Assembly: GCA_023818695.1 (NCBI GenBank)
Contig: JAMWCF010000002.1
Coordinates: 66 to 64,065, forward strand
Direction of reading: 5' to 3'
From: Candidatus Omnitrophota bacterium
Lineage (GTDB): Bacteria; Omnitrophota; Gorgyraeia; 1-14-0-20-64-10
DNA: 64,000 bases
In this document: piece after piece, positions 16,820 to 64,000 of the stretch
How positions within the stretch are numbered: position 1 is the stretch's first letter
Layout of the letters: every line of letters begins with the position of its first letter
The notes under the pieces: model-generated
What the model saw: the letters and a program-made list of their open reading frames with translations, nothing else
Told to the model about the DNA's origin: nothing
Database searches by the model: none
Position numbers and translations under genes: made by a program

Positions 16820-16838
16820 GACGGCCGGCGGGCCGGGG

Positions 16839-20729: not shown

Positions 20730-20736
20730 AAAAACA

Positions 20737-23102: not shown

Positions 23103-23111
23103 AGGCGGCTG

Positions 23112-33264: not shown

Positions 33265-33323
33265 ACAGATCCCGCCGATCCTGCCTGAAGCGAATCAATC
33301 ACAAGAGAAAGAAAAGGGAGACC

Positions 33324-35866: not shown

Positions 35867-35923
35867 TAAATCCAGATATTCTCCTTGACTTTTTCAAAGC
35901 GCCCCACTATACTTCAAAGTAAC

Positions 35924-47984: not shown

Positions 47985-50900
47985 ATGATGGAGAGAACGA
48001 GTCGGCATCATTTCATAAACCGCATAAGTGCCTGGCTCCTTATCCAGGCGCTTATTTTATCTCCGGCTTCCGTGCCGGTTTTCGGGACGGATGATCGGGC
48101 CCTTTCCGGCCAGACCCTGCGGGTCCAGCAGCCGGAAGGGGAGGCGGTCCGTTCACAGATCGGCAGCCGTTTGGCGGCTTCCGCCGGGCTTGAAGAGAAC
48201 TTAGTGGTCCAGCCGTACCGCGGTTTCACCACCAGAGTCCGCCGGGTGACCGACAAGGGCCTGCAGGTGGCCAAGCGGGAAGTGGGGGAGCTGATCGGGA
48301 CAACCTCCATCGATCTGGCAAGCGGCACCGTGGCAAACGCCCAGTTGGCCGCCGGGACAGGGGCCGCGGACCAGAACGGTTTGAATGCCGTCCGGGTGGT
48401 GGAGTGGACACAGAGCGGACTCCAGTGGCTCCTCGCCCACCAGGATTTGCCCGCGGTGACACGGCTTCTGCAGCGCCTCCAGGATAAGGACAAAACTTTT
48501 CCGGTCGAGTTGAGAGCCAATCACGCCAACACGCTTGATTTCACCGACCAGGAAGCGGCCATCCGTCTGGACACGACCATCGGCTCTGAGCTCCAAGAGC
48601 CCCAATACAGCGGCGGAAGGACCCTTCTTTACGCCGTCGGCCTTTTCCATGAGTTGGCCCAGGCCGCCGGCTTCACACCGAGGGAAGCGGCCCACCTGGT
48701 GCTGAACATTTACACCGGCATGACAACCGCCGAGAGGCAGCAGCTCCAGGCCGTTTTGAGGACGCCGGTGATCGACCACGGCGATACCTGGGCGCTGTTT
48801 CTGGAGGACGCCACCCGGCTGCCCGCCCCGGAACTGGCTGAATACGCCGGGGTGGACTCCTTGACGCTGGAGGAGCGGTTGGATGGAGAGCCGGACGCGC
48901 AGCAGCAAGGCCGGATGCTGGCGGTCCGGAACCACCGGGACCGGTGGGTTTCCTGGATGATGGGACAGACAATGGTCGACCTGCCGTACGACCGGCTGGC
49001 GTTCCGCCGCGCCATGGAGATCCAAAACGTCGAGGAGAAACGCCAGGCCTCCTATCAGGTCATCCGGAACTTCGACCGGGATGTGGAGGCGGACAATGCC
49101 AGGCGCGTGGGGGCGATCGTCCGGGAGCAGTGGCTGCCGGAAGAGTTCCCGTATCCGGTCCTTTTGGCCGGACGGGAGAGCCGGGCCTTCGGCAACCAGG
49201 CCTTTCTTTTCGCCAACAGCGGCTACGCCTTGAAAACGACCGATGTCGCCGAGGCGGCGCAGGCGCTGATGGAGATCGCCAAGGCGCACGCTCTGGAGCG
49301 GGAACTTCAGCAGGTCATCGAGACAGCCCCGCCGTGGGCTCAAGGGGAGCTCACGAAATCGGTTCGCCAGATCAAAGAGCTTTTGGCTCATCTGGGACCC
49401 GGCACCGGCCGAATCCGCCAGCTGATCTTCGGGCCGGGCACGGTAGTGGCTATGACCCAGTTCAGCGGGGCCCTGCAGCAGCTGCGTGAAAACCTGGAGA
49501 TCTTCTATAACCAGGCGAGGGTTGCCCTGCGCCAGTCCCAGCAGAGGACGGTCAAGACGTCCCAGGAGGGGATCGGCCGGCGGCTTCAGCGGGAGGATGT
49601 GTCGGCCGGTTTCGCCCGGGCCCAACAGGAGCTTTCCCGTTTTGCCGGCGAATCTGGACTGGTGGCGCTGGCGATCAACCGTTTGGAAGAGGCGATGCTG
49701 AAGGCCGAAACGTACGCCGCCGCCTACAGCGTCCTGATGCAGAGGCCTTCCAGGACCGGATCCGAGAAATTCAAGGGCAACGAATTGGAGGAGAAACCGG
49801 AGCAGGAGGAGGCCCTCCGGAAGCTGGTCCGTCTGGGGGGACAAAACACCTATATGAGCCCCAGCTACGAGTGGGTGGCCGAAGCGACCGACATCATCGA
49901 AGCGGCCCCGCTGTTCATTTATGAGCGGACCATTGAGATGGACGGCAAGCATGTGACTGTCTTCGAGGTGGATCAGGAGGGGTTGGAGCAGACGATCCGC
50001 CAGATGGCCGACTACTGGGCCCAGAACATCGAGAAGACGATTGACTCCGAACATCTGGCCTTGGCCCGCGAGGTCGTGGTTCTGTCCAATGGGGCCCTTG
50101 CCGATGCGGCGCGGCTTTTGATCCAGACCGGGCTGCCGGCGGAGGCCGCTTATCGGCAGGTCCTCGCCGAATCGGCGCCGCAGCAGCAAGGTCTGTTGGG
50201 TCAGGTTGCCCGGGTCGCCGCCTGGCTGGCCGCCGAGTATAACAAGCGGGCCGAGAAGATCGAAGCCCGTGTTGAAGAGGCGTGGAGCCGGCAGAATTTC
50301 ATTGGACGGATGGAGGCGCTGCGCCTTGAGGTGATCGGCGATCCCTCCAAAGGAAATTATCCGGACCGGGCCCGACAGGCCGTCGGCCGGGCCGATCGGG
50401 CCTCGACATCTCTCCAGAAGGAAACCGAGCGGCTTCTGCCCAATGCTTTGATGCGGCAGAGGCCTCTGCCGGCTTTCCATCTTCTGACCACGGAGGCGCC
50501 CGGCCTGGTGGAAGGGTTCATCCAGACCGTTCTGGAAGAAGAGATGGCGCTGCGCAATGTGGTTCGGGCCAACGACTTTGAAAACGAGGTCAAGGAGAGA
50601 GAGCGCCGGTATGCCCGCCTGATCCAGGAGATCGGATGGCGGGTGATCCAGGAGTTCGGGTATGAGCCGATCGTCGCCCAGTATGAGGCGCAGGGGATGA
50701 CCCGCCCCCAGGCGATCTCTCAAGTTGTCGGGGACCATCTGCCGATCCAGCAGGAGGTGGCGCGGCTGGCGGTTCTGATCGAGCTGGCCGAGACGGACGC
50801 GCAGGCGCAGGGGACCACATTCACCTTCAATGCCGCCCAGCCGAACATTCCGTGGGTTGCCAACCTCCTGAGCAACGCGGCGACGCTGACCGGTTTCCAG

Positions 50901-53900
50901 GCGCAAGCCCGCCAGCAGGTTTGGCAGCGCAACCAGCTGGATTCGGACTTCGTGAAAAGGGTCGCTCAGCTGACTCAGCAGCTCCAGTCCGAAACGCAGG
51001 CAATCGCGCAGGCGATCCAGGAATCGGAGATTTACCGGCGGGAGTTCGAAGCGACCGTCGAGTGGCTGGCCCGCCGCGAGGCGCTGGACCGGCTTGATCA
51101 GGAGAAACCGGCCCTGCAGATTCAAAACCGGTTTCGGCACTGGTACCGGGCCCACACCGCCTTGGGCAGGACCACAGCCCGCAGAGAGACCGTGGCGGCC
51201 CACAACCTCCACGCCGCCATGAGCGATCCGCGGCACGCCTATTCCAGCGGGACGACTCTGGACACCAAGGACGGGAAATTCCGGCCGACAGGCGGGCGCA
51301 AGCGGTACCACCTGATCTACGCCCCGAGCCGCGTGAACCTCGGCAAGGGGGAGCGGGCCTCCGTGGAGATCTGGCCGCAGTGGGTCGGGGTGGCCGATCC
51401 GCTGGCCGCCGCCCACGCCAAGCGCTTTTACGAATTGATGAACTTCAATCCGCAGATCCGGACCGTGAAAGAGGCGGAGAACCTGAAAGTTTCCGAGAAC
51501 CAGTGGACCGCCATGATTCGGGCCGTGCGCAACGTGCAGGCCTATTTCGTCACCCGTTTGGGATATGGGGACATCGAGGATCTCGCCTTCCAGTTCAACC
51601 AGCGGGGCGGACTGCCGGTGGCAGCCGTCAAGGAGCCGGAATCTTATTCGGCGGGGCCCACCACCGGCTACTGCATCCCGAAGGATCTGTTGTTCAAGCT
51701 TTTCGTTGCCACCCTCCAGGATTCTAGGAAGCTCGCCCAGATCGGCGTGCCGGCCCATCTGCATCCTGTGGTCCAGAGGATGATAGTTCGTATCGCCGCC
51801 AGGCAGGGGGATTTTGAGACAACCGGCGAGTGGGAGCAGTGGGCGGTCGAGGAGCTGCTGTCCGCTCAGGCCCTGCAGGCGATCTTCAAACCGGCCGAGG
51901 CGAGCCAGCTTCAGAAGATCTTTTCCTCTTACGTGGAGGTGACCGGCGGGGCGGTGATCTTCCATATCACCAAGCTGTCCCAGATCCTCCAGACCACCGG
52001 CATGCCCAGCCCCCTGCTGGCCCACGGCAGCAACTTGCACGCTGCCTTGTGGAGCAACTGGGCCGACCGAAGCTTGACTCTGCCGGCGGAGGAGGTCAAC
52101 CGCTCCGTTGTTTTCAGCATGACCCGGGATATCCCGGAGTCGGCGGCGGAAGCCCGGCGGCTTAACCCGGAGGCAGGCGTGGTTCCCGAGCAGCAGCTAC
52201 GGGTCCATTTCTTCGGCACCTACAAGGGGGACGAGGACGAAGCCCCCCCGCCGGACGTCCGCTATTCTTGGACGATGCGGGCCTTCATGATCATGAGCGG
52301 GTACGGCAGGGAGGTGGCGCTGTCCCTCAACGCCGAGGGCCAGCTGTTGGCCCGCTTGAGCTGGGAGGGATTCCGGCCCGATTCCGATGACCCGGAAGAC
52401 GTCAAGGTGACGCGGTATCTTGCCAGGGAATTCGTCGGGCAGGATCAGTTTGCTCCGGAGCACGATGAGATCATCAAGCGCCTGAAAGCCGCCTTCCCGC
52501 CGCACACCACCGTCGGCGACATCACCGTGACCGTTGTGCCGGGTGTTTCGTCCGAAGACCTGCTTGGGTTCAGCGCCGAGACCGCCACCCTCTTGGGGAA
52601 CGAGGCGACCCAAGCCCAGGAATTGCTTCAGTCGAGAGGGATCTCGGTGGAGCAGATGCGGGCCAACGCCGTCCTGCGGCGGCAGTTTCCGGAAGAATGG
52701 ATCCCGCTCAACGATCTCTCCGGACCGGAACAGGATCTGATCAAAAAAGCGATCGGCGGGCAGATCCATCCGCTGGTCCTGCGCTTGAGGGGACCGGGGG
52801 ACGATTTCAAGAGGGATCTGCAGGGGCAGGACGTTGTTGTCTTTTCCGTCACCCATCCGGAGATCATGCAGATGGACCCGGCCCATTTAAGGGACCTGAT
52901 GCTGACCGGCCGTCCGCAGAGCGCCCTCTGCACGCTGGATTTCGTCGCGCAGGGGCGGCATCGGGTCTGGTTCGACCGGGACATCATGCTCTGGTACGCG
53001 GCGGGCCGGGGCGTGGATTCAGAAGGTCGGCCGATCGCCGACTGGCGGCAGAGGGACGCGAAAGGCCGCAAATCGGTTTACCGGGCTTTCGGCTGGGGGG
53101 CGCAGGAGTTCAGGCCTTTGCTGGGCACCGATCTGCGGGATGAGGTGATCCGGCAGGAGCGCCGGGCCACGGATCTGTTCGAAGTTTTGCGCCGGGTGGC
53201 CAACGCCCGCACAGCAGATCTGCCGAAGGCGATCGAGCGGTTCAAAGCCGCCTACCGGGAGAGTTTCCCGCCCGATAAGATCGCCATCGAGGCCGATCTG
53301 GCCCGTCAGTATGAGCAGCAACTCCTTATGAACAAACGCTTCAAATCAAGGGACCGGATCATCCGCCAGGCGTTTGAAGATATCGCCACCGGCATGCCGG
53401 CCGAGCAATTCGGCGTCGTTCATTGGCTTTCCACCGGCGGGCTCTTCCTGCTCAACGGCGCTCCCCAAGCGCAGCAGGAAGAGGTGCTTGGCGTCATCCG
53501 GACCGCGCAGAAGAGGATGCAGGGTGTCAACAATTCCGCGGGCCTCGAGGAGAGCGAACTGGTGGCCCTGCTAATCAAACCGCAGCTGACCGCCGCGGCC
53601 ATCCAGCTGACCGAAAGGAAAGGGGAGATGTTCTCGGTCAAGGCCAGCGAGACGGTGGTGGAGAAAGCGGTGGCCCGCCGAAAAGGACTGGCTCTGCAGG
53701 CGGCCCGCCAGGCGGCCGTGAGATCGCGCGAACAGGGGTTCCATTCGGTGGAATCGCTGACCGCCATCGGTCAGGTCGATGGGGCTCTGCAGGCAGGCCG
53801 ACAGAACGTTCTCTCGATCATCGGGGATCTTGAATCCGGCGTTCCGGTCGATTCCTCATCGGTTCACCGGCGGGTCGGTGTGGTGATGGGGCACACCGTG

Positions 53901-56900
53901 CAGGTCCTGCGGCGCTTGGCCGAGGACCTGGTGCAGGATGAAAAGGAGCGCCAGCGGATCCGGCGTCAGATTGCCGCCTTGACGCAGGGGCGGGAGTTGA
54001 GCTCCCGGGTATGGAACTCCTTCGGTGGGACTTACGAGGATTCGGGGATCCTGGCCCGGCTCTTCGAGCTGGCCGGGGAGGCCAACCGGCCCGCGGTTCT
54101 GGCGGCTATGGAGCTTCTCTACACCTCGCTGGCCCTGGAACGGACCGCCGATTTCCTGGTCCTGCCCGCAGAGGATGTGGATGAGCGCCTCCTTTATCGA
54201 GCCGCCGCCGGCTTCTTCGCGGAAACGATCGACGACCATTTCTATGAATACAACCCCTGGGCTCTTGATCCAAAGAGGGCATCTACCTTTGTCGGCCTCT
54301 ATGACGACCTCGGTGTCCTGAAGCCGGAGCACCGGGAGGAGGTCTACGGCCTCTCCTGGAGCCATCACCGAGTCCTTTACCAGTATTTTCGGTACCTGTT
54401 CCTGAACAAGACCGGCTTCAAGGACCTTTCCACCGCCGATCAGGATCTTCTGCTGGGGCGGGTCCAGATCGGGGATTCCGCCGAGCAGGACCAGCTGACC
54501 GTCCAGGCAGTCGGCGCCAGCGCGCCCGGCCGTTATGAACGGTTGTGGCGGGCCTACGGCCAGTTCCGGGAGCTGGCCTTTGTGCGCAACGACGGTTTCG
54601 CGATCCCCGTGGCCTTCGAGAACCTGGATGCCGACGATCCGGAGATCCTCAATGCTTCCCGCAAGGTGAACCATGCCTTCTTGAGCGGTGTGGGGCGGAC
54701 CCATTATTCCAGGGCCTTAATGGAGGCGGGCCATCTTGGCGAGAACATCTTCATCACCCGCGATGGGGTGGTGGCCACCCCCGCGGGAGCCAGAGGGGCG
54801 GTTCTGCAGATCAGCGACGCCCATTTCTGGCTGACGCCGGGCCGGTACCGGCATGCCCTGATCCGTTACAAAGGAATGAGTCCAACGGAGGCCGATCAGC
54901 AGATCGCAGCGGATATGAAAGCAGGCCGGATCACCCCGAAAGGGATCCGGGTGGCTGCCCGGTTCGCCAGGCCGGTCACCGTCGGATCGGTCGTGGCTCT
55001 CCATCACCATTACCAGGAGCTGGAGCTGGCCAAGGTCGGTTATCCGGCCACCGACAAATCGCCGGTTCTCTTCGAGTACACTTATGACAAGTCTCTTTAT
55101 CCATCCGCTTACAATCCTCCGGACCAGACCGGGGTCAACCTGCCGCCGGAGGTCGACTGGCACGCACAGGACACGCAGCAACTTCCGATGGCCACGGCGA
55201 AGCAGCGGATCAGGGATCTGGTCCGGCCGTTCGCCGAGGAGCACGGCATCATCGTGGCCAAGGGGTCCGCAGAGTCCGGCGCCAGGAACTTCAAGCGGTT
55301 CGACATCCTCGTCAACGGCCAGGTGGATGAGCAGGTTCTGCAGGAAGCGGTTGATTTCATCTATGAGGTTTCCAAGGGACAGAACGTCACGATCCAGCGG
55401 GCGATCATCGTCACGCCGTTGTCCTGGATGGACCCCACCGCCATCGAGCAGTTCGTGGAGCGGCAGATCAGGGACTGGTCGGTGCCGGTCAACCTGGAGC
55501 GGCATCCGAAGAGCTGGGTCTATGGCACCCTGCGCGTGATTCTGTCCGCCGGCATGCCGAAGGATCTAGCGAAACTGGATGATCCGGCCAACTGGCAGGC
55601 CTCCCACTGGATCAGTTTGAACAGCTTGCAGGTGGCCACTAACGTCGGCCGTCAGGGGACTTTGGAGATGCTTCAGCCGGAGATGGTCCGGCCGGAGTTC
55701 CGGCAGACCTTTATCCAGGAGCTTGAAAAAGCCGGCCGGCAGGTGATGGCCGCCACCGCTAGGTACGCCAAGCATTACTGGGACACGGTCTATGTACCGG
55801 CTTACACCCAGAAATACGGCCACCCGCCTCAGGAGTTCGACGCCGTCGGGGTGCCGTACTGGTGGCCGAGATACTTGATGCTGGATTTCTTGCCGGAACC
55901 GATTTGGGCCAAAAACGGCCAGCCGGTGCAGGGGGCAAGGGTGATGGATGTCATCCCCGGCGATCCGAAGAAGGGGACGCCAAGCCGGTTCACGCTAGCC
56001 GATTCCACCGGCGAGATTTTTGAAGGGCAGATCTTGGGATTCAAATTCTGGCTGCTGGAGCCGAACGTCGGGATCGGTTTGTGGCCGAACTACTGGCGCC
56101 GGGAAGAGGTGCATGAAAGGGGCCGGGCGAAAGCGCTGGGGCAGCCGATGGATTGGTCCCGCGTGGGGGTCAGCGATCGGATCGTTTTGAACAATTACCT
56201 GGCCGCGGGCGAAGCGTTCCTGCGTGCCAAATTCGGAGATGATCATTTCGGGCCGGGCGGGCCGCAGCGGGGAGGGCCGGACCCGTTCGTGCCGCCGTCC
56301 GTCACCTCGCCGACAGCGAGCCAGCCGCTGATGGCAACCTCCACCCCCATGCAGCACGGCGTCGAAACCGTTCAGCAGGCCGGCGCGGCGACCATCGGGT
56401 CGGCCCAGATGAGCCGCATTTTCGTGGAGGCGGCCCTTCGTGCCATGGCGGCCCCTATGGAGTCGCTCCGCCTGGAAACCCCGGAGGTTTTGCTGGACCG
56501 CATCAACCAATGGCTGGCCGATCCGGCTCGCGTTCAGGAATTCCCGCAGGGGGTAGGGGTTTCCGTGACCCACGAACAAGTCGACCAAGCGTTGAGCGAC
56601 TCGGTCTACAGGGGGCGGGTTGCCGAGCTGACGCTGGACCGGATTCTCTCCGAATCTGTGGCGCCCCAGGTGGATATCCTGCCGGAACCGCTATCCGCCG
56701 CCGCGACAGCACAGCTGATGCCTCACCTGTTGACCTTCGGTGTTGTCACCGGCAAGCGGGCCGTGATGAACCATCACATTTATCCCTGGGCGGCAGGCCG
56801 CGGTAACGCCCCTGTCAATGTCGTGGGCGTCCATGAGGAATGGTTGACCCCCGATGGCAGGGTTTCCCGGGCGGTTGTCTGGAAGGAAGAGGCGGGCCGG

Positions 56901-59900
56901 TTTGTCGAGGTCTCATTCCAGGAACCGGTGGCGCTGACCCATGCTTTTGTGGTGGAGCTTCTCCCGGACGATGAGCCAGGCCGGCATCAGCAATTGAACG
57001 ACCGACTTGAAAAAGCCGGCGTCCAGCTGATCAACCCGGCGCTGCGATCCGGCCTGCGTCTGGATGACAAGGGATGGATCGCCGAGAACCTGCCGGCTGA
57101 CATGACCGAAACGCTGGTCCGGGTGATGCCGGCCGGGATGGATTCCTCCTATCGTTATTCATTCGCACGGGAGGTGTTGGCACAGAGTCCGCGGGGCGTG
57201 ATTGTCAAACCGACGCCTGGCACCGAAGGCCATGGGGTGAGGTGGTTTCAGGATGCCTCCGGTGTGCTGGATTACCTCAATTCGTTCAAGGGAAAGAGCG
57301 GCGTCCTGATCAGTCCGTTCCGCGGGAATGTGACCTATCAGGGCAGGCCGGTTGTCCTGCGGTTCAACGTGATCAACGGGCGTGTGACCACCGCGACCGC
57401 CGTGGTTGGCGAGGCGGGAGGCAAAATCGCTTCGCTCGGGCAGGGAGGGACGGTGGAGCCGCTGCAGGAGGTCCTGGCCGACCTGCGGGATGAGACCGGT
57501 CAGCCGGTCTCGATCACCGCCGGGGTTTGGGAGGCGCTGCGGTTAAGGGCCCAGGAAGCGGCCCGTCGAGCCGACATCGGCATCGTGGGAGTGGATATGG
57601 TGCTTGAATCCAGCCCACAGGCCGGAGTCCAGGGGATCATCGTGGAGATGAACGCCCGGCCCGGCATCCTGGTCTTCGGGGAGCGGGTGACCTTTCCGGA
57701 GGATGGCCCCATCGAGAGCCAGCCGGCGCCGGTGACTGACTCCCATTTCTGGTCCTCTTTAACCGTGCCGGGGCGTCCTTGGTCTCCCGCGGCCGAATCC
57801 CTGCGCCGGGTGCTGGTCATCTGCGATGACCCGGTCGTGCGCGGACACATCCTGACCGTGATGGCGCGGCGGCATCCCTGGGTCCATGTCGAGGCGGTCA
57901 GTAACCTGACCCAGGCCATCGCTTACTTAGAAGGGGTCAACAACGGCGAGCAGCCGATTCCCGATCTTATTCTGGACCAGTCCTCCGAAAGCGGCCGGCT
58001 GGTCGGCCCCAGTTCGGAACTCTGGCTTGAGTTCCTGCGTCACCAGAGCAGGATGAATATCCCTTACGCCGTAGGCGGGCCGGTCGGCGAATACGACCTG
58101 GACAGCAGCGTCTCCATGATGCGGGGAATGACGGAGACCTTCACCCTCTCCCAGTGGCAGCAGATTCTGGCCGACCCGGTCAAGAGTGGGTTTCGGTCGG
58201 CCCTCTCTCGGTTCGTCCCGGTTGAAAGATTGAACGTCGAAATCGAGCGTGTTCGGCGGTTGGTGGATGAAGCCGCCGCCCGGAACGTTTCCCTGGGGGG
58301 CAACGCCGCGGAGCCGCTGTTCAAGGCGGATGCCCGGGTGGCCCTCTCCTTTTCGCCGGGCCGGGTCCGGTTCTTCATGGGCCACTCCGATATTCGGGGG
58401 ATCGGCGGGCAGACGATCAACGCCGCCACAAACTACGGGATGTGGGCCTTGACGCAGGTGATCGAGGACCCACAGGGTCGCGTCGTGGCCGACAACCTGG
58501 ATCCGCAGTATGGTTTCTATGAATTCAACTTGAACGGCCCCGATTCCCTGCCGCCGGCCGGCATCTCTTCGGTTCGTCCGGATTGGCTGGCTTGGGCCGA
58601 GGCCCACGCGGATGCCGACAAGTGGCATGGGTTGCCCAGAGCGGTGATCGCCCTGATCCGGACCGATATGCTGGACCCGCAAGGGCAGCGGCGGATCTAC
58701 TTCCAAGGCAAAGGGATCCGGTTCTTCTTGGGTGAGAGCGACCTTCCGGTCGGCAAGGGGCTCTCCTCCTCCTCGGCCCTTCCGGCGGTCTTTTACCGGG
58801 GTATCCAGCAGTTCCTGCCCCCCTTCCTGCGCCTGCGCGGGAAGGGGCTCAATGACCTCGATTACGCCGCTTACGTCGTGGGCGACCGGGCCGGCACCGC
58901 CGACATGACCGCCATCAATATGGGGCGGGTCGGCGAGGTCTCGGTGCTGAAATCTTTCCCTGAAGAGCAGGGCGAAACGGTCAAACTGCCTTCCGATTTC
59001 CGGTTTTTTGTGGTCGATTCCGGCGTGAAGCGGATCGACGCCCCTGACCAACCGACGCAGGTGAAAAACTTCGCCGCTTTCATCAAATCGATGACCGGCA
59101 TGGGGCCTTCTTTGGCGGCTGTTTGGCTGCGGCGCCAGGCACGCGTCGACACAGCGCTGGCGGATCTTGAATCGATTTTAATGCATGAGCCGGCGGGGCA
59201 TCCGTTCGGGCTGTTGCGGGAGTTGACAGAGGCGGGCGTGATCACGAAGCCGCAGTACGCGGATATGGTCGGTGGGACCACACCGCAGGCGCGAGGGGAA
59301 TTCGTCAGGGGCCTTTTGGAGCTGATCCCGAACGATCAGACGCTGGGACAGCTCCGGCAGGCCATTGAGCAGACTCCCAATAGCAACGACCTTCTCCAGG
59401 CTTTCGACGGGCTCTTAGCTGGCTTCACCCCGCTGGGGGCCCACCAGATTCCGGTCGACGCCCCGGATAAGGATCAGCAGCTTCATGCGCTTCGTCTGAA
59501 TTCGGTCATTCCTCTGCGGCAGCTGGCCGCCTACGGGATTTTCGAGATCGGGCGCGGGTTGGATTATGTGGAATCGGCTAAGGCGGGGGACACCCGCAGA
59601 CTGATTAAGCTGATGCGCAAGGCGCATGACGGGGATAGGGCGGTTTGGACGCTGGGGCCCGGCGACACCCTGGTGCCGACCGCGTGGGGCCAGACCAACC
59701 CGCCGGAGGCCTTCTTCCGGTCCTTGCCGGAAATTGATGCGATGATCGACGAGTTTCAGACGGCGATGGACGGGCAGTTCGGCGAAAACGCCGCCGCTGG
59801 CCGGATCATGGCGGCCGGTCTGGGCGGCGCTGTAGCCGTCGGTGTTGTGGCCGAGGCGTATGAGGCGGCCAAGCAATGGTTCGCCGCGTACAACGGCGGC

Positions 59901-60467
59901 CGCGAAGTGATCGATGTGGAGCCCAGCGGCGGCGCTACCGGCATCGGCGTCCGGACCGATCTGAAAACCGCTCCCTCAGCCGGGTTGGAAGGGCAGCCGG
60001 TTGCCGTTGCCGACTGGGTTGTCGCCAAAGGTTCTTTGCCATCGGCGAAGACGGAAGTTCCCTCTATTGGAGTGATTGCCGGGACCGCCGATCCTCGTGG
60101 GTTGGCCTACGGAGTGGCCCTGACTCGGGCCGTTACTCCGGACGGCCAGCCGGTTCCGGTCGTCTTTGTCGTCGCCACCGACGGACAGAAAGCCAAACTG
60201 CAGGAGATGGGAATCACCTCCGGCTCGATCTTTCAAGCGGGGCCGGAAGGGGAATACCCGACCGTCGAGGCCGCTTCCCGGGCTGCTTCCCAGTGGCTTT
60301 CCACCGCCTACGGGGTCGGGCAGGTGGTGGAACTGGGGGTGACGCGGCGGATTGTGATGACCCTCCAACAGATTCTGGAGAACCTTTTTGGCATCAAGCT
60401 GGTATCGGAAGCGTTGGCTGTCTGGGAACAGTTCGTCGACCAGGCCACATTGGCCCTCCAGGCGTAA
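47985..60467 (+). CDS. Giant multi-enzyme protein B (~4160 aa): anchor/leader, ~1100 aa unassigned helical region, nucleotide-sugar dehydrogenase-like module, two ATP-grasp-like modules, REC-like domain, GHMP sugar-kinase module, shared C-terminal domain
   Basis: A single uninterrupted ORF (the track gives TTG 47976). The ATG at 47985 or 47988 gives MMERTSRHHFINRISAWLLIQALILSPASVPVFG. Motifs are in the domain-level features below. Confidence 0.85.
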   Translation: MMERTSRHHFINRISAWLLIQALILSPASVPVFGTDDRALSGQTLRVQQPEGEAVRSQIGSRLAASAGLEENLVVQPYRGFTTRVRRVTDKGLQVAKREVGELIGTTSIDLASGTVANAQLAAGTGAADQNGLNAVRVVEWTQSGLQWLLAHQDLPAVTRLLQRLQDKDKTFPVELRANHANTLDFTDQEAAIRLDTTIGSELQEPQYSGGRTLLYAVGLFHELAQAAGFTPREAAHLVLNIYTGMTTAERQQLQAVLRTPVIDHGDTWALFLEDATRLPAPELAEYAGVDSLTLEERLDGEPDAQQQGRMLAVRNHRDRWVSWMMGQTMVDLPYDRLAFRRAMEIQNVEEKRQASYQVIRNFDRDVEADNARRVGAIVREQWLPEEFPYPVLLAGRESRAFGNQAFLFANSGYALKTTDVAEAAQALMEIAKAHALERELQQVIETAPPWAQGELTKSVRQIKELLAHLGPGTGRIRQLIFGPGTVVAMTQFSGALQQLRENLEIFYNQARVALRQSQQRTVKTSQEGIGRRLQREDVSAGFARAQQELSRFAGESGLVALAINRLEEAMLKAETYAAAYSVLMQRPSRTGSEKFKGNELEEKPEQEEALRKLVRLGGQNTYMSPSYEWVAEATDIIEAAPLFIYERTIEMDGKHVTVFEVDQEGLEQTIRQMADYWAQNIEKTIDSEHLALAREVVVLSNGALADAARLLIQTGLPAEAAYRQVLAESAPQQQGLLGQVARVAAWLAAEYNKRAEKIEARVEEAWSRQNFIGRMEALRLEVIGDPSKGNYPDRARQAVGRADRASTSLQKETERLLPNALMRQRPLPAFHLLTTEAPGLVEGFIQTVLEEEMALRNVVRANDFENEVKERERRYARLIQEIGWRVIQEFGYEPIVAQYEAQGMTRPQAISQVVGDHLPIQQEVARLAVLIELAETDAQAQGTTFTFNAAQPNIPWVANLLSNAATLTGFQAQARQQVWQRNQLDSDFVKRVAQLTQQLQSETQAIAQAIQESEIYRREFEATVEWLARREALDRLDQEKPALQIQNRFRHWYRAHTALGRTTARRETVAAHNLHAAMSDPRHAYSSGTTLDTKDGKFRPTGGRKRYHLIYAPSRVNLGKGERASVEIWPQWVGVADPLAAAHAKRFYELMNFNPQIRTVKEAENLKVSENQWTAMIRAVRNVQAYFVTRLGYGDIEDLAFQFNQRGGLPVAAVKEPESYSAGPTTGYCIPKDLLFKLFVATLQDSRKLAQIGVPAHLHPVVQRMIVRIAARQGDFETTGEWEQWAVEELLSAQALQAIFKPAEASQLQKIFSSYVEVTGGAVIFHITKLSQILQTTGMPSPLLAHGSNLHAALWSNWADRSLTLPAEEVNRSVVFSMTRDIPESAAEARRLNPEAGVVPEQQLRVHFFGTYKGDEDEAPPPDVRYSWTMRAFMIMSGYGREVALSLNAEGQLLARLSWEGFRPDSDDPEDVKVTRYLAREFVGQDQFAPEHDEIIKRLKAAFPPHTTVGDITVTVVPGVSSEDLLGFSAETATLLGNEATQAQELLQSRGISVEQMRANAVLRRQFPEEWIPLNDLSGPEQDLIKKAIGGQIHPLVLRLRGPGDDFKRDLQGQDVVVFSVTHPEIMQMDPAHLRDLMLTGRPQSALCTLDFVAQGRHRVWFDRDIMLWYAAGRGVDSEGRPIADWRQRDAKGRKSVYRAFGWGAQEFRPLLGTDLRDEVIRQERRATDLFEVLRRVANARTADLPKAIERFKAAYRESFPPDKIAIEADLARQYEQQLLMNKRFKSRDRIIRQAFEDIATGMPAEQFGVVHWLSTGGLFLLNGAPQAQQEEVLGVIRTAQKRMQGVNNSAGLEESELVALLIKPQLTAAAIQLTERKGEMFSVKASETVVEKAVARRKGLALQAARQAAVRSREQGFHSVESLTAIGQVDGALQAGRQNVLSIIGDLESGVPVDSSSVHRRVGVVMGHTVQVLRRLAEDLVQDEKERQRIRRQIAALTQGRELSSRVWNSFGGTYEDSGILARLFELAGEANRPAVLAAMELLYTSLALERTADFLVLPAEDVDERLLYRAAAGFFAETIDDHFYEYNPWALDPKRASTFVGLYDDLGVLKPEHREEVYGLSWSHHRVLYQYFRYLFLNKTGFKDLSTADQDLLLGRVQIGDSAEQDQLTVQAVGASAPGRYERLWRAYGQFRELAFVRNDGFAIPVAFENLDADDPEILNASRKVNHAFLSGVGRTHYSRALMEAGHLGENIFITRDGVVATPAGARGAVLQISDAHFWLTPGRYRHALIRYKGMSPTEADQQIAADMKAGRITPKGIRVAARFARPVTVGSVVALHHHYQELELAKVGYPATDKSPVLFEYTYDKSLYPSAYNPPDQTGVNLPPEVDWHAQDTQQLPMATAKQRIRDLVRPFAEEHGIIVAKGSAESGARNFKRFDILVNGQVDEQVLQEAVDFIYEVSKGQNVTIQRAIIVTPLSWMDPTAIEQFVERQIRDWSVPVNLERHPKSWVYGTLRVILSAGMPKDLAKLDDPANWQASHWISLNSLQVATNVGRQGTLEMLQPEMVRPEFRQTFIQELEKAGRQVMAATARYAKHYWDTVYVPAYTQKYGHPPQEFDAVGVPYWWPRYLMLDFLPEPIWAKNGQPVQGARVMDVIPGDPKKGTPSRFTLADSTGEIFEGQILGFKFWLLEPNVGIGLWPNYWRREEVHERGRAKALGQPMDWSRVGVSDRIVLNNYLAAGEAFLRAKFGDDHFGPGGPQRGGPDPFVPPSVTSPTASQPLMATSTPMQHGVETVQQAGAATIGSAQMSRIFVEAALRAMAAPMESLRLETPEVLLDRINQWLADPARVQEFPQGVGVSVTHEQVDQALSDSVYRGRVAELTLDRILSESVAPQVDILPEPLSAAATAQLMPHLLTFGVVTGKRAVMNHHIYPWAAGRGNAPVNVVGVHEEWLTPDGRVSRAVVWKEEAGRFVEVSFQEPVALTHAFVVELLPDDEPGRHQQLNDRLEKAGVQLINPALRSGLRLDDKGWIAENLPADMTETLVRVMPAGMDSSYRYSFAREVLAQSPRGVIVKPTPGTEGHGVRWFQDASGVLDYLNSFKGKSGVLISPFRGNVTYQGRPVVLRFNVINGRVTTATAVVGEAGGKIASLGQGGTVEPLQEVLADLRDETGQPVSITAGVWEALRLRAQEAARRADIGIVGVDMVLESSPQAGVQGIIVEMNARPGILVFGERVTFPEDGPIESQPAPVTDSHFWSSLTVPGRPWSPAAESLRRVLVICDDPVVRGHILTVMARRHPWVHVEAVSNLTQAIAYLEGVNNGEQPIPDLILDQSSESGRLVGPSSELWLEFLRHQSRMNIPYAVGGPVGEYDLDSSVSMMRGMTETFTLSQWQQILADPVKSGFRSALSRFVPVERLNVEIERVRRLVDEAAARNVSLGGNAAEPLFKADARVALSFSPGRVRFFMGHSDIRGIGGQTINAATNYGMWALTQVIEDPQGRVVADNLDPQYGFYEFNLNGPDSLPPAGISSVRPDWLAWAEAHADADKWHGLPRAVIALIRTDMLDPQGQRRIYFQGKGIRFFLGESDLPVGKGLSSSSALPAVFYRGIQQFLPPFLRLRGKGLNDLDYAAYVVGDRAGTADMTAINMGRVGEVSVLKSFPEEQGETVKLPSDFRFFVVDSGVKRIDAPDQPTQVKNFAAFIKSMTGMGPSLAAVWLRRQARVDTALADLESILMHEPAGHPFGLLRELTEAGVITKPQYADMVGGTTPQARGEFVRGLLELIPNDQTLGQLRQAIEQTPNSNDLLQAFDGLLAGFTPLGAHQIPVDAPDKDQQLHALRLNSVIPLRQLAAYGIFEIGRGLDYVESAKAGDTRRLIKLMRKAHDGDRAVWTLGPGDTLVPTAWGQTNPPEAFFRSLPEIDAMIDEFQTAMDGQFGENAAAGRIMAAGLGGAVAVGVVAEAYEAAKQWFAAYNGGREVIDVEPSGGATGIGVRTDLKTAPSAGLEGQPVAVADWVVAKGSLPSAKTEVPSIGVIAGTADPRGLAYGVALTRAVTPDGQPVPVVFVVATDGQKAKLQEMGITSGSIFQAGPEGEYPTVEAASRAASQWLSTAYGVGQVVELGVTRRIVMTLQQILENLFGIKLVSEALAVWEQFVDQATLALQA
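51300..52905 (+). other. Domain in giant B: UDP-glucose/GDP-mannose dehydrogenase-family-like module with insertions
   Basis: - HLIYAPSRVNLGKGE resembles PERVxPG.
- The central helix is EAENLKVSENQWTAMIRAVRNVQAYFV.
- The catalytic-Cys motif is GPTTGYCIPKDLL (canonical GFGGSCFPKD; Cys codon 51672-51674).
- The C-terminal domain pattern is VHFFGTYKGDEDEAPPPDVRYS ... DVVVFSVTHPEI.
- No clear N-terminal GxGxxG was found. Confidence 0.55.
55180..56240 (+). other. Domain in giant B: ATP-grasp-like module 1 (candidate)
   Basis: EHGIIVAKGSAESGARNFKRF (K-x-G-S-x-x-G), RAIIVTPLSW and FWLLEPNVGIGLW (E-x-N-type loop) are present. The pattern is weaker than in module 2. Confidence 0.4.
56760..57690 (+). 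other. Domain in giant B: ATP-grasp module 2
   Basis: PRGVIVKPTPGTEGHGVRWF, GVLISPFRG...LRFNVINGRV and GIVGVDMVLE...GIIVEMNARPG follow the RimK/glutathione-synthetase-type ATP-grasp pattern. Confidence 0.6.
57801..58170 (+). other. Domain in giant B: receiver (REC)-like domain embedded between ATP-grasp and kinase modules
   Basis: LRRVLVICDDPVVRGHILTVMARRH...VEAVSNLTQAIAYLEG...PDLILDQ carries the acidic pair and the Asp at the expected spacing of a receiver fold. Downstream T/K positions are unclear. Confidence 0.45.
58320..59960 (+). other. Domain in giant B: GHMP sugar-kinase module (galactokinase-like)
   Basis: The galactokinase-type signature is SPGRVRFFMGHSDIRGIGGQTINAAT (canonical GRVNLIGEHTDY). 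The GHMP ATP-binding motif is LPVGKGLSSSSALP (canonical PxGSGLGSSAA). Confidence 0.65.
59976..60467 (+). other. Shared C-terminal domain, copy in giant B
   Basis: It begins at SAGLEG (59976-59993) and ends ...VWEQFVDQATLALQA-stop. It is a paralogue of 47291-47869. Confidence 0.8.
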
Positions 60468-60480
60468 TGGGACGGAACGC

Positions 60481-63400
60481 ATGACAGAAAAAAAATCCAT
60501 CAACCAGGCGGTGAAACTGATCGCGTGGGTGTTAATGCACGCCCTTGTTGTGACCCAGGCGTGCCCTGCATCCGTCTGGTCCGCTCCTGCCCATTCGGCT
60601 GATGGGCAGACCCTGCGGGTTCAGCAACCGGAAAGCGATGTGAGCCGCGCGCAGATCGCCGGCCGGCTCGCCGCCAGCGCCGGCCTGGAGGAGTTGACCC
60701 CCGCCAAGCTGATCGACGGCTGGAGCGGGTTCTCCCAGCCGGACCGCAAGCGTCTCGGGGACCAGCTTCGCCGCCTCGCCGACAAACCGACCCTCGCCCG
60801 CCTGGTGGAGTACGCCCAGAATTCGATCAATCCCCCGTACACCCTTTATGAGCTGTTGGCCAAGGTTCTCGGCCAGCCGATACCGGTGGTCCAGGCGATG
60901 GTCGAGGGGCTCAACCCTTCGGCCTACCGGCCGCCGCAGACGATTTCGATCGGGGAATCCCACCCTATCCTGTGGAACGCCGACGAGGTCCGGCAGCATC
61001 TGGAGAACACCGTCATTGTCATCGCTGCAGGCGGCGGCGGCGCCCGCTTTAAGCGAAGTTTGTGGACCAAGCTGCGGGAACAGCTGGAGCGCAACCACCG
61101 TTTGGAGAAGCCGACCGTCATGGTGGGACCCTCCGGGACGAGCCCGGTGGTGCATACTTTGGAGGAGATTTCGGAGCTGGCCCGGTTGGTCGGCGCCAAG
61201 AACGTCCGGGTGGTTGTCGTCGCCTCCCCCGACAGCATGGAGGCGGTCCAGGGGGATATCAAGAAGAACAGCCGCTTCGTCGATCCTAAACGGGTCAAGG
61301 TGCGGGTGACCGAACAGAAGACCCACCCCAGCTTTCACACGACTTCAGGGAAGATCCTGACCACCACGGACGAGCAGGGCAGGCCTGTCCTTTTGAGGAA
61401 CCCCAACGGCACCTACGGCGCCTTTTCAGCCGGTTATGAGCTGGCAAAGAAGGAAGGGTTCGCGGCGGGAAAATCTTGGCTCGTCCTTTACGGGGATGAT
61501 CCGGTTCTCAACTCCGGCGATTTCATCGCCCGGGTCCTGACCATCGGAAAGGATCTGGATGTCGCCCCGATCGTCACCAGGAAGATCTCCCGGACGAACC
61601 CGGTGGGCGGGACCCTGGTTGACGTGGAGCTGTCTCCGGGGCTGGTCCTTCCTTTGATCATCGAGAAGGCGGAGAGGGAGCCGAACGCCGCCGCCGGGAT
61701 TCCCGGCTTGCCGGCCTTCAACCAGGTGGAGGATGCGGCGGCCCAGACCGGCAACGACCCGTTCGGGTTCAACACCGGCGTCATGAAGCTGTCGGCTCGC
61801 GCGGCGGAGGTAGCCGGCGGCCTGATCCTGCCGATCCGCCACGCCGACCGGGAGAGGGACGACTTGCCCGGAAACATGCGCCGGAACATGGAGCTTTTCG
61901 CCACCCATATTCCCACCTATGTCATCGGCACGCATCCCGAGATGACCTACCGGCCACTGCAGGTGGAACTGGAGCAGTACGGAGCGACGAAAGATTACGG
62001 AAAGGTGGTGGAGGCGAACCTCTCCCGGGATGCCCGGAGCCGCCAGCGGTTGAACCAACTGCTGCAGGCGGCGCCCGCCGTGCAGGTGCAGATCGGGGAG
62101 AATGTTTACCTGGATATCCGCCCCAGCTTCCAGGGTTTTAAAGGAAAGGGAACTTTGGAGCTGAAGGGTCCGATGGGGGTTGTCCTCTCCCGCGACGGCC
62201 TGACCGCCGTCCGGATCATCGAGCGGCATGCCGAGGGAAACAATCATCCCCTCTATGCCGACCCGGGGCAGGGTCAGCAGATCATCGCGGCCACAAACGG
62301 GATCATCGACCTGACAGGCGATCAGGTTGTGGACGGCTCGCAGATTTTTGCCGGTCAGGAAGAGCCGGTTCAGATCTTAAAGAGCTACTTCCCGGACCAG
62401 CTCCAGGGGCCGGGCGAAAAGCCGTTCTGGATGCAGGGGTTGACCCCGGTGGACACCCTGGCGCAGATCATCCCGGCGGCGCAGCTCGACAGCAATTCTG
62501 AAATCTGGATCCTGGGCGGTGGGGACGGCCGGGTCGGGATTGCCGCCGCGGTCCTGGCCAAGGTGAAAAAGGCGGTTTTTGTGGAAGTCGACGATGGTGC
62601 GCTTGCGGCAATCCACGCGGCAGCAGACCATTTTGTCGGCTTGGGACTGGTCAACCGATCCCAGATCGGGATTATGCAGGCCAATATATTTTCTCCCGAT
62701 TTTCAGGTCGGCCCTGACGCCACCCACATCTACCACACTGTCGGGGGTGCCTATAACCCGGAGGGGCACGGGGCCGAACAGGTCATTCCCAAAAATGTTT
62801 TCCCCCAGGTGATCGAAAAGATCAAACAGGCCCCCGTTGGAACGAGAGTCATCTTTTATCTCGGCGCGGAGGGGGAGGTTCCTCATTATTATGAACAGGC
62901 GGTCATATCTTCCGGTTTGAACCCCTGGTTTGTTTCCGGGTTGGACCAGAACATCGTCCAGATCTACCGGGTCCCGTCCGCCGGGCTGGAGCAGATGCCG
63001 CCCTCTCCCATCACCGGTTGGATCGCGGCAGATCTGGGCAACGGCTGGCGCCGCCTGCTGTACCAGCTCCAGAACGGGGACGCCTGGTTCGGGGGTTTGG
63101 TCCGAAACGACGTGCCGGACTCCCAGATCGATGACACCGCTTATATTTCACCCAGCAGCACCGTGGAAGGGAAAGCATCCCGCCTGGAGGCGGGAGCCGT
63201 TGTCAAGGACGGCAGCGCGGTCGTCGATTCGGTCATCCAGCGTAACGCCCATCTGATTGCTTCAATCGCGGAGTCGGCGCGCATCCGTCCCATGGCGGCG
63301 CTGAAAGGGGCCGTTGTTCGTCCGGCCTACGAGGAGGATGATTGGTCCTACAGCGGGGCGACCTCTTCCGATCCCCGGTTGTCGGTGAAGCACCATGAGG

Positions 63401-64000
63401 TCACTTACGAGGGTTATATCTACCGGGTGGAGGTGGAGGCCGCCGCCCTCGTTGAGTCTTCGGATGTCCAGGGTTCCTTCATCGGCAAAAAATCTGTCGT
63501 GCAGGGAAGCGCGATCGTCATCAGCCAGCTCGGTGACGAGACCGATTCCCATAGAGTCAAGTGGAGTTTGGTCACCGCGCCGGCCGGGCATCTGCAGGTG
63601 CAGGGAATCCAGCGGCTGCCGGGGAGGGAGATCCCGGCCGCCACCGAGATTTCCGAAACCGCCATCCTGGGGGTGTCGGACATCGATTACCGGGGCACGC
63701 AGTTTTCCATCCGGAACACCGGCTACACCGAGATGGTGGCGCTCAACCGGATCCCGCTGGCCTCCTATTTCGGGAAAAACCTTTCCTTCGCCTGGTATCC
63801 CAAGCAGGTCCCGCCCCTGATGCTGCTGGGAGACGGGGCGATCTTTTCCATCTTTGCCGGCGCCCCCAACCCGCAGAGCATTAAGACCGACGGTACCCCG
63901 ACGCCGGGCGTCATTACCAGGATCAGCGGCGCTCCGGGTGAGCAGACCAGCCAGCATGGCCGGATCGTGGCCGATCCGATGACGGTGGTGGCCGGCTTCA
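60481..64000 (+). CDS. Giant multi-enzyme protein C, 3' end beyond the window (at least 1173 aa): anchor/leader, GlmU-like nucleotidyltransferase, spermidine-synthase-like Rossmann domain, hexapeptide/LbH region
   Basis: This ORF is not in the supplied track, presumably because it has no stop in the window.
- I translated frame 1 from the ATG at 60481 to 63999 by hand and found no stop codon.
- The N-terminus is MTEKKSINQAVKLIAWVLMHALVVTQACPASVWSAPAHSADGQTLRVQQPESDVSRAQIAGRLAASAGLEE, nearly the same leader as giant B.
- Other motifs: NTVIVIAAGGGGARF, WLVLYGDDPVL and FNTGVMKL (GlmU/NTP-transferase-like, ~61006-61800); EIWILGGGDGRVGIAAAVLAKVKKAVFVEVDDGAL (spermidine-synthase-type GGGDG, ~62490-62610); hexapeptide-like ISPSSTVEGKASRLEAGAVVKDGSAVVDSVIQRNAHLIASIAESARI (~63140-63290). 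Confidence 0.85.
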   Translation, partial: MTEKKSINQAVKLIAWVLMHALVVTQACPASVWSAPAHSADGQTLRVQQPESDVSRAQIAGRLAASAGLEELTPAKLIDGWSGFSQPDRKRLGDQLRRLADKPTLARLVEYAQNSINPPYTLYELLAKVLGQPIPVVQAMVEGLNPSAYRPPQTISIGESHPILWNADEVRQHLENTVIVIAAGGGGARFKRSLWTKLREQLERNHRLEKPTVMVGPSGTSPVVHTLEEISELARLVGAKNVRVVVVASPDSMEAVQGDIKKNSRFVDPKRVKVRVTEQKTHPSFHTTSGKILTTTDEQGRPVLLRNPNGTYGAFSAGYELAKKEGFAAGKSWLVLYGDDPVLNSGDFIARVLTIGKDLDVAPIVTRKISRTNPVGGTLVDVELSPGLVLPLIIEKAEREPNAAAGIPGLPAFNQVEDAAAQTGNDPFGFNTGVMKLSARAAEVAGGLILPIRHADRERDDLPGNMRRNMELFATHIPTYVIGTHPEMTYRPLQVELEQYGATKDYGKVVEANLSRDARSRQRLNQLLQAAPAVQVQIGENVYLDIRPSFQGFKGKGTLELKGPMGVVLSRDGLTAVRIIERHAEGNNHPLYADPGQGQQIIAATNGIIDLTGDQVVDGSQIFAGQEEPVQILKSYFPDQLQGPGEKPFWMQGLTPVDTLAQIIPAAQLDSNSEIWILGGGDGRVGIAAAVLAKVKKAVFVEVDDGALAAIHAAADHFVGLGLVNRSQIGIMQANIFSPDFQVGPDATHIYHTVGGAYNPEGHGAEQVIPKNVFPQVIEKIKQAPVGTRVIFYLGAEGEVPHYYEQAVISSGLNPWFVSGLDQNIVQIYRVPSAGLEQMPPSPITGWIAADLGNGWRRLLYQLQNGDAWFGGLVRNDVPDSQIDDTAYISPSSTVEGKASRLEAGAVVKDGSAVVDSVIQRNAHLIASIAESARIRPMAALKGAVVRPAYEEDDWSYSGATSSDPRLSVKHHEVTYEGYIYRVEVEAAALVESSDVQGSFIGKKSVVQGSAIVISQLGDETDSHRVKWSLVTAPAGHLQVQGIQRLPGREIPAATEISETAILGVSDIDYRGTQFSIRNTGYTEMVALNRIPLASYFGKNLSFAWYPKQVPPLMLLGDGAIFSIFAGAPNPQSIKTDGTPTPGVITRISGAPGEQTSQHGRIVADPMTVVAGF

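Follow-up and report, generated by a model that had tools for sequence, protein, structure and literature searches.

A giant gene cut by the edge of its sequence window encodes a modular protein with a UAP1/AGX-type pyrophosphorylase-like domain in a probable Omnitrophota genome

The last 3.5 kb of the 64,000-nt stretch of DNA analysed here (contig JAMWCF010000002.1; hereafter the window), positions 60481–64000, are confirmed as coding: they form the first quarter, at the 5′ end, of a real gene of 4584 codons, which we call giant C. It is the last of three co-oriented tandem giant genes, A, B and C, with products of 3363, 4160 and 4584 amino acids (aa). We propose, with a probability of roughly 0.78, that C is the third member of this A-B-C array in a probable member of the Omnitrophota and encodes a beads-on-a-string multi-enzyme protein feeding UDP-sugar synthesis.

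60481–64000, plus strand: giant C coding sequence, codons 1–1173 of 4584, cut by the window edge (no stop; codon-position GC; identical Logan contig).
60532–61338 (minus), 60848–61309 (plus), 61426–62247 (minus), 62377–62886 (minus) and 63262–63957 (minus): listed open reading frames, out of phase by codon-position GC and read as shadows.

A sequence-only reading of the window had proposed a giant open reading frame (ORF) of at least 1173 stop-free codons from the ATG at 60481, and retranslation of 60481–63999 on the plus strand bore this out, giving 1173 codons in frame +1 up to the window edge; in-frame stops were looked for across this interval and none was found, and the remaining five frames contained 6–44 stops each. 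At the window GC content of 0.611, the probability of 1173 stop-free codons is ~2e-16. ORF length alone is weak coding evidence in this genome, because antisense shadow ORFs of giants A and B (39329–42724 and 48201–52040, both on the minus strand) reach 1131 and 1279 aa, which is due to GC-rich third codon positions. In the giant C frame, however, GC at the three codon positions was 0.64/0.44/0.79 in each 600-nt block, a pattern also seen in atpA, atpD, the GH94 gene and the ATPase gene of the type II secretion system (T2SS). The small ORFs listed in the interval were out of phase by the same measure, in agreement with the earlier view that they are shadows. Beyond position 64000, where the sequence-only reading had advised looking, Logan contig SRR27730039_1944, identical to the window over 26 kb with 0 mismatches, extends the gene, its own gene call starting at the same ATG and yielding a product of 4584 aa.

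That there is no gene here at all, the open frame arising from high GC content or faulty assembly and the short ORFs of the track being the real genes, is scarcely credible and already effectively refuted. Antisense ORFs of 1131 and 1279 aa do arise by composition chance in this window, but the codon-position GC of the frame is that of real genes and the small ORFs fall out of phase with it; moreover, homologues of the giant C protein occur in independent assemblies at 44–59% identity, a Logan contig matching the window was recovered from several samples, and a fold is predicted for the product with high confidence. Neither an Rfam family nor a tandem repeat was found in 60481–64000. As the sequence-only reading had supposed, giant C is missing from the ORF track because the ORF tool omits ORFs that run off an end, and with tracks of this kind, 3.5 kb of real coding sequence would either go without annotation or be filled with shadow ORFs.

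The first module of giant C resembles UAP1/AGX-type UDP-GlcNAc pyrophosphorylases and directly follows the leader of the protein.

60676–60693, plus strand: junction 1, SAGLEE, residues 66–71, boundary of leader and module 1.
60682–62349, plus strand: module 1, residues 68–623, UAP1/AGX-type (UDPGP family) pyrophosphorylase-like domain with a C-terminal beta-helix (AlphaFold2, Foldseek, profile).
61024–61050 (AAGGGGARF), 61102–61113 (LEKP), 61480–61509 (LYGDDP), 61771–61791 (FNTGV) and 61978–61992 (YGATK), plus strand: signatures of module 1.

As a single sequence, module 1 was silent against Pfam, NCBIfam and the PDB, and UDPGP (PF01704) was not among the Pfam matches of residues 1–1173 at E 0.1 or of 3329 aa at E 1. 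An exhaustive HMMER search of 1.84 billion cluster representatives brought up just 27 relatives, compared with 2 relatives for C and 1 for a profile of the C-terminal tail in a word-indexed protein search, and a metagenome scan for further module 1 loci returned two distant loci only. These additional sequences were needed for structure prediction: AlphaFold on a 3-sequence alignment of residues 1–680 gave a pLDDT of 33, and AlphaFold2 with an alignment of 17 sequences from the exhaustive search gave a module 1 model with a pLDDT of 90.8 and a pTM of 0.90. In Foldseek against the PDB, this model matched UAP1, AGX, USP and UGP structures (E 2.6e-19, TM 0.55–0.70, 500–530 aligned columns). The profile of the same 17 sequences matched UAP1/AGX-type UDP-GlcNAc pyrophosphorylases in the PDB at 1.3e-9 over profile positions 9–487, and matched GlmU at 1e-6, partially and in the nucleotidyltransferase domain only. 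Six residues, G185, R189, K210, D339, E471 and K504, are invariant across the 17 homologues; throughout the family, AAGGGGARF keeps its Gly-rich loop and Arg, LEKP its Lys and LYGDDP its Asp.

The sequence-only reading had called this domain a GlmU-like nucleotidyltransferase, of which the superfamily stands and the family gives way. Module 1 and GlmU share the nucleotidyltransferase superfamily, the local motifs LAAGxGxR, YGDxP and NTG, and a pathway logic in which UDP-GlcNAc is made by a fused multi-domain enzyme; however, module 1 is not directly followed by a GlmU-type trimeric acetyltransferase beta-helix, the GlmU equivalog PRK14354 scored 11.4 bits on C against a cut-off of 450, and hhalign paired module 1 with GlmU at a probability of 37%. 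By contrast, UAP1/AGX1 (PF01704; PDB 8yp3, 2yqc and 1jv1) resembles module 1 over its full length, from the N-terminal helical part through the central Rossmann-like pyrophosphorylase core to the C-terminal beta-helix, and shares with it the Gly-rich NTP loop with Arg, the downstream Lys and the metal-binding Asp. The start of module 1, AG-x-E...W, also resembles what we take to be the start of eukaryotic UAPs. The differences are considerable: identity is just 13–17%, the Pfam UDPGP model does not detect module 1, an extra ~20 residues lie between its Gly loop and its Lys, and module 1 sits in a 4584-aa signal-peptide-bearing protein, whereas UAP1/AGX1 is a free cytosolic enzyme. Taken together, the predicted structure and the profile matches give module 1 a UDPGP/UAP-type pyrophosphorylase fold that is closer to UAP1/AGX than to GlmU, and the UDP-sugar concerned is probably UDP-HexNAc.

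62350–62364, plus strand: degenerate junction AGQEE, residues 624–628, between modules 1 and 2.
62365–62976, plus strand: module 2, residues 629–832, class I S-adenosylmethionine (SAM)-methyltransferase-like Rossmann domain, with its GGGDG loop at 62515–62529.

The second module carries ILGGGDGRVG...VEVDD, which reads as a GxGxG SAM loop with an acidic residue after it, where strand 2 ends. A profile built from three sequences matched aKMT protein-lysine methyltransferase in the PDB (5fa8, 5.4e-9; also aKMT, 1.5e-8) and RNA methyltransferase 5bxy (7e-6), and the likeness to aKMT/PrmA-like methyltransferases (PDB 5fa8 and 5jwj) at 5e-9 covers the GxGxG loop and acidic strand over ~85 residues, with only the N-terminal half of module 2 aligning. 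A spermidine-synthase-type Rossmann domain with a G-G-G-D-G motif had been proposed for this region; the fold class holds, but Pfam Spermine_synth (PF01564) reached 14.3 and 17.2 bits, under its cut-off of 22.9, and a polyamine aminopropyltransferase in the PDB gave E 0.037 versus 5e-9 for lysine methyltransferases. These matches support a class I SAM-methyltransferase-like assignment for module 2, rather than specifically a spermidine synthase. Profile searches, which the sequence-only reading had called for, yielded fold matches for both modules 1 and 2, and the motifs it had quoted are all present, AAGGGGARF at residues 182–190, LVLYGDDPVL at 334–343, NTGVMKL at 431–437, GGGDG at 679–683 and SAGLEQ at 833–838.

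62977–62994, plus strand: junction 2, SAGLEQ, residues 833–838, between modules 2 and 3.
62995–64000, plus strand: module 3, N-terminal 335 aa of a module of ~1050 aa (residues 833–1885) that goes on past the window.

Module 3 shows 47–59% identity over ~1050 aa to modules of the relatives P0005, P0006, P0007, P0009 and P0011, and had no significant PDB or Pfam match. Identity with the DUF4954 domain of giant A was considered and rejected, as neither BLAST nor hhalign found a relation. A hexapeptide-repeat region had been noted here, for which support in the window is weak: a short hexapeptide-like stretch at residues ~880–960 matched the GlmU beta-helix at E 0.08, with a lag-6 hydrophobic autocorrelation of 0.24. 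Past the window, Hexapep reached E 0.0022, under its cut-off, and PDB beta-helix matches were weak. The protein then continues with a galactokinase-like GHMP module (5e-7) and an archaeal GlmM-like module (5e-7), with the Pfam families GHMP_kinases_N and PGM_PMM_I. The GMGSSSS loop of the former resembles what we take to be the GHMP phosphate-binding motif, and TPSHIP in the latter resembles the mutase phosphoserine loop. A helical spacer of ~110 aa lies between the kinase-like and mutase-like modules (C residues ~2537–2650; 30105–30450 in locus L001); it recurs in P0012 and stands just before the tail in P0009 and P0011.

The modules of C are delimited by a short recurring motif, SAGLEE or SAGLEQ, at residues 66, 833, 1889 and 2650, with the degenerate form AGQEE at residue 624, and the ends of the BLAST alignments of C, at residues 65, 624, 833, 1889 and 2649, fall at these GLEE-type positions, which shows the module boundaries. 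For the family as a whole, 43% of alignment starts fall no more than 30 aa from a GLE[EQ] motif versus 11% for random positions, and GLEE occurs 58 times against 2.7 expected by shuffling, a 21-fold enrichment. In 52 of 56 cases, the junction Gly is preceded by Ala, Thr, Ser or another Gly, and Ala, Pro, Ser and Thr abound on either side of the motif. The codons of the motif differ synonymously between sites, which therefore points to selection on the peptide; a DNA-level repeat as its source was rejected on these codon differences and on the absence of tandem repeats.

Individual junctions follow the same pattern. At junction 1, the eight residues before the Gly (residues 60–67) are disordered in the module 1 model and the helix begins at L69–E71, L-E-E being its first turn; in internal copies of module 1 in other giants, homology begins at residues 54–67. 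AGQEE aligns with GLEE of P0001, P0003 and P0004 and with AGLEQ/AGQDE at the module 2 start in P0015 and P0012, the model is disordered from residue 628, and BLAST boundaries lie at residues 624–634. SAGLEQ, already taken for a junction by the sequence-only reading, is where the alignments to P0005, P0006, P0007 and P0009 all begin (residues 833–834), its counterparts in relatives being SSGMEE, QAGLEE, FAGQEE and SAGLEE.

The same modules occupy different positions among the 27 relatives. Module 1 also occurs in a stand-alone leader-bearing protein, P0001 (658 aa), or deep within other giants; module 2 is found at other positions in P0012 and P0015, and in 3 of the 3 proteins carrying it, the junction motif flanks it on both sides. 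The syntenic relative GCA_964373715.1 has the gene order A′-B′-C′, in which the B-like gene P0003 consists of the leader, module 1 and the B body with the breakpoint at GLEE, and the C-like gene P0005 passes from the leader directly to module 3 without module 2, followed by GHMP and PGM modules, a stretch that by eye resembles NagB/6-phosphogluconolactonase, ROK and the tail. As judged by these alignments, modules have been swapped between giants at the junctions.

60481–60588, plus strand: signal-peptide-like leader, residues 1–36, with n-region MTEKKSINQAVK, h-region LIAWVLMHALVVT and c-region QACPASVWSAPA.
60613–60633, plus strand: head motif LRVQQPE, residues 45–51, the family-wide LR-x-Q/P just past the signal peptide.

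The leader of C, with a basic n-region, a 13-residue hydrophobic core and then ...SAPA, looks like a Sec-type signal peptide with a putative cleavage site, and is the sole hydrophobic segment in 3329 residues of the protein. Relatives have a clear AxA motif directly before the head motif, and in giant A and nearly all relatives, the sequence runs AxA/LRPQ... or AFA/...TLRxxQ... (putative cleavage at the slash) and then to AGLEE. Giants A, B and C thus share one layout, with a single putative Sec-type signal peptide, then an LRxQ head motif and then (S)AGLEE. The leaders of C and B had been described as the same, and they share 39% identity over ~100 aa, including GQTLRVQQPE and RLAASAGLEE; the head motif is common to B, A (ALRPQG), P0001, P0003, P0004, P0009, P0010 and the large genes of the relative L005.

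37778–47869, plus strand: giant A, first of the array, 3363 aa, with ALRPQ leader, AGLEE, GlmS-like SIS domains, DUF4954 and C-terminal tail.
47985–60467, plus strand: giant B, directly upstream of C, 4160 aa, with C-like leader, head motif, AGLEE, galactokinase-like module and C-terminal tail.
60468–60480, plus strand: B-C spacer, 13 nt, from the B stop TAA (60465–60467) to the C ATG.

The 13-nt spacer is too short for a terminator plus promoter, implying co-transcription of B and C. Giant B has an internal AGLEE at residue 1853; its TTG start is unmatched in public calls, and an ATG three codons downstream is matched.

In the mechanism that we propose, the product of C would carry one N-terminal Sec-type signal peptide, the LRxQ head motif and a series of independently folding modules, each opening with an [A/S/T]-G-L-E-E junction within an Ala/Pro/Ser-rich linker. 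The order would be a UAP1/AGX-type pyrophosphorylase, a SAM-methyltransferase-like module, the ~1050-aa module 3 with putative beta-helix segments, a galactokinase-like GHMP module, a phosphoglucosamine-mutase-like module and ~1250 more residues. Together with the GlmS-like A and the kinase-bearing B, C would channel hexosamine and hexose phosphates to UDP-sugars, the pathway parts being GlmS-like (A), sugar-1-kinase-like (B and C), and mutase plus UAP-type pyrophosphorylase (C), to which a C orthologue would add ROK and a possible NagB-like stretch. The sugar ABC importer and the NagA-like amidohydrolase, ROK and GH94 genes upstream would fit such a pathway, and the product of the adjacent GH94 enzyme would be a sugar-1-phosphate, the kind of molecule on which module 1 would act directly. 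We regard the gene, the folds and boundaries of its modules, the enrichment of the junction motif and module exchange between giants as shown; catalysis, substrates, export and whatever reads the junction motif are inferred.

Several points weigh against this proposal. Activity and substrate rest on fold and motifs, since no enzyme module reaches its Pfam or NCBIfam cut-off, and the Lys that we take to correspond to K407 of AGX1 is an Asn in C, preceded by Arg-Arg. Module 3, ~30% of the window part, is without assignable function, and 3329 of the 4584 residues of C were read, the last 1255 lying outside the analysis. The GH94 substrate could be chitobiose or cellobiose. The taxonomic placement is indirect, the relatives carrying both Omnitrophota and Planctomycetia labels. 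Finally, a Sec-type leader would send NTP-dependent enzymes out of the cytoplasm, an awkward site for their chemistry; such leaders on NTP-dependent enzymes have previously been noted for Omnitrophota giants (10.1101/2023.11.21.568195).

The junctions might instead be dedicated protease sites at which the exported C protein is cut into free enzymes, the first site freeing the whole chain from its leader; such a polyprotein would add a processing step to the multi-enzyme proposal, and we consider it unlikely, though by no means negligible. The motif marks module starts exactly, within disordered linkers rich in Ala, Pro and Ser, and its Gly follows a small residue; it comes after the leader in every giant, and stand-alone modules such as P0001 keep both leader and motif. 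A papain-like Peptidase_C1 gene lies within the related cluster of leader-bearing large genes in L005, and an earlier study raises cleavage as an open question, with cleavage points unknown (10.1101/2023.11.21.568195). However, no protease gene is conserved beside the giants in the window or in the relatives L006 and L008, the distant low-GC lineage of L005 has modular giants without GLEE, and the motif is degenerate in some orthologues (AGQEE, SGMEE and VGEE), which a strict cleavage site would poorly tolerate. In addition, L-E-E forms the first helical turn of the module 1 fold, so the motif could be structural, and eukaryotic UAPs begin with a similar AGQEHLL motif.

Catalysis itself may also be questioned. 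A distinctly improbable alternative is that C is a non-catalytic giant, its pseudoenzyme modules serving as sugar or nucleotide-sugar binders within an exported protein of the surface or coat, used for attachment to partner or prey cells, a role already suggested for other Omnitrophota giants. This would suit a signal peptide without further membrane segments, which points to an extracytoplasmic site where ATP and UTP are absent, as well as modules that all fall far under family cut-offs, and the first ORF of the window is a 1814-aa surface-type repeat protein; giant ORFs have also been tied to attachment (10.1101/2023.11.21.568195, PMC10066038). Yet no adhesin repeats were found in C, its domains form a coherent hexosamine/UDP-sugar pathway, and the adjoining genes are catabolic. 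The G-G-x-G-x-R, Lys and YGDD of module 1 are kept across diverged homologues, as are the GMGSSSS loop of the GHMP module and the TPSHIP loop of the mutase, which resemble the motifs of their families. An assembly-line megasynthase of the non-ribosomal peptide synthetase/polyketide synthase type, called to mind by the size, by giant genes in tandem and by a conserved head and tail with a possible docking role, deserves hardly any weight: A, B and C were scanned against Pfam and NCBIfam, and no adenylation, condensation, ketosynthase, acyltransferase or carrier-protein domain was found.

The multi-enzyme proposal for C agrees with what has been described for long proteins of Omnitrophota, which string numerous domains of metabolic enzymes along one chain and in most cases have a signal peptide or transmembrane helices, and whose class 1 'multi-enzyme metabolic clusters' include PGM/PMM and ROK domains (10.64898/2026.06.07.730766); glycolytic and PGM domains have likewise been reported in 'Archaeovorins' (10.1101/2023.11.21.568195). 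As in C, distinct enzyme domains tile one chain in these proteins (PGM/PMM, sugar kinases, and ROK in relatives), and the array shows the same tiling, with UAP-, methyltransferase-, GHMP kinase- and GlmM-like modules in C, GlmS-like domains and DUF4954 in A and a galactokinase-like module in B. The long proteins also share with the giants the N-terminal signal peptide, poor conservation, near-invisibility to Pfam, a genome context with an F-ATPase/type IV pilus locus and the puzzle of NTP-dependent enzymes predicted to be extracellular. They differ in that the catalogues begin at at least 10,000 aa (or >30,000 aa), whereas A–C measure 3,363–4,584 aa, have no internal transmembrane helices and stand three in a row; the limit of at least 10,000 aa, above the 4584 aa of C, is a catalogue threshold and not a biological criterion.

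In text searches of 10.64898/2026.06.07.730766 and 10.1101/2023.11.21.568195, neither the [A/S/T]GLEE junction nor the LRxQ head, the ~150-aa tail or a UAP-type module turned up, and the same held for a linker, a cleavage-site motif and a nucleotidyltransferase module; a full-text literature search for the string AGLEE gave irrelevant matches only. Viral and eukaryotic polyproteins and multi-enzyme fusions such as AROM and CAD likewise place linker-separated pathway enzymes in one chain, and protease-processed polyproteins have a short recurring motif at each boundary, as in C; unlike these, the giants have modules shuffled between paralogous giants in no fixed order, and no associated protease was found. 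C fits the known kind of Omnitrophota multi-enzyme giants, and its head, junction and tail grammar and its UAP-type module may be new.

The window is bacterial chromosome, in the order repeat protein, F-ATPase/pilus, sensor kinases, sugar block, 618-aa ORF and giants A-B-C. Its first ORF (27–5471, plus strand; 1814 aa), which has Reelin-subrepeat-B and chitobiase-C-like repeat matches, a GTG start and no recognisable signal peptide, probably encodes a large repeat protein of the cell surface, with some doubt over where it truly starts. Positions 6810–25213 on the plus strand hold an operon for an F-type ATPase (fused b/delta, alpha, gamma and beta) and, directly after it, type IV pilus/T2SS genes (PilB-like ATPase, PilC-like, T2SSK-like and PilM/N). 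Co-located F-ATPase and type IV pilus genes have been reported across Omnitrophota as a 'symbiosis' locus, and this co-location and giant ORFs are given as hallmarks of the group (PMC10066038); we take the host to be a probable Omnitrophota member. Its closest genomic relatives are a metagenome-assembled genome labelled Planctomycetia (L002, 57% identity) and one labelled Candidatus Omnitrophota (L003, 46%).

Upstream of the giants, a sugar-uptake and catabolism block (26166–35747, plus strand) encodes a fusion of solute-binding protein and ABC permease, another permease carrying a CBM30-like insert, a NagA-like amidohydrolase, a 334-aa protein, a ROK protein with a helix-turn-helix domain and a GH94 disaccharide phosphorylase. 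Just 5′ of giant A lies a gene for a 618-aa membrane protein (35885–37741, plus strand) for which searches of Pfam and the PDB gave no match. Its sequence shares 37% identity with P0024 over the first ~590 aa of the latter, and since P0024 fuses this domain to a copy of module 1, the 618-aa protein appears functionally tied to the giants. Its conserved pattern, IIIHIQDAH..LVEGG...ARKRD...GGFHTP, may resemble that of TraB/Tiki/GumN-type proteins. In the relatives L006 (20554–22533) and L008 (26420–26863), BatD-domain genes lie shortly 3′ of the last giant, with a Lactamase_B_2 gene before the BatD gene and an OmpA gene after it in L006; the corresponding stretch of the present contig falls past the window edge.

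Giants A (47387–47866) and B (59985–60464, both plus strand) end in a tail domain of ~150 aa that is 68% identical between them and closes with ATLALQA. In A, B and most relatives, the tail measures 140–160 aa, always forms the extreme C-terminus, typically ends ...W..F.D.A.LALQA and falls into two alignable subtypes; it had no match in Pfam or the PDB and could be a sorting or docking domain. L005 (JGI Ga0247842_10000135), a distant low-GC relative, has leader-bearing large genes of 4893, 849, 1148, 1752 and 3848 aa with the LRxQ head motif and no GLEE junctions, and amid these a leaderless papain-like Peptidase_C1 gene (16083–16859), a candidate processing protease.

Giant Omnitrophota proteins are nearly opaque to domain databases, and C provides a compact, well-delimited example. 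The locus is a tractable small model, with three giants of 3–5 kaa and modules delimited within a few residues by a 5-residue motif; one module has a confidently predicted UAP1/AGX-type fold, and the presence of that module in a different giant of a syntenic relative is a natural experiment. The junction motif also gives proteomics studies defined sites to inspect and marks where single modules could be cleanly cut out for expression. More speculatively, and in our judgment rather doubtfully, such giants may represent an undescribed class of exported bacterial 'poly-enzymes', defined by a Sec signal, an LRxQ head, [A/S/T]GLEE modules and a ~150-aa tail, in which GLEE, as a signal for cleavage or recognition, would release or dock modules and a UDP-sugar pathway would be delivered outside the cytoplasm. 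If so, a complete hexosamine-to-UDP-sugar pathway would be delivered, for example, into or onto a partner or prey cell, and the junctions would also serve as breakpoints for module shuffling between giant genes.

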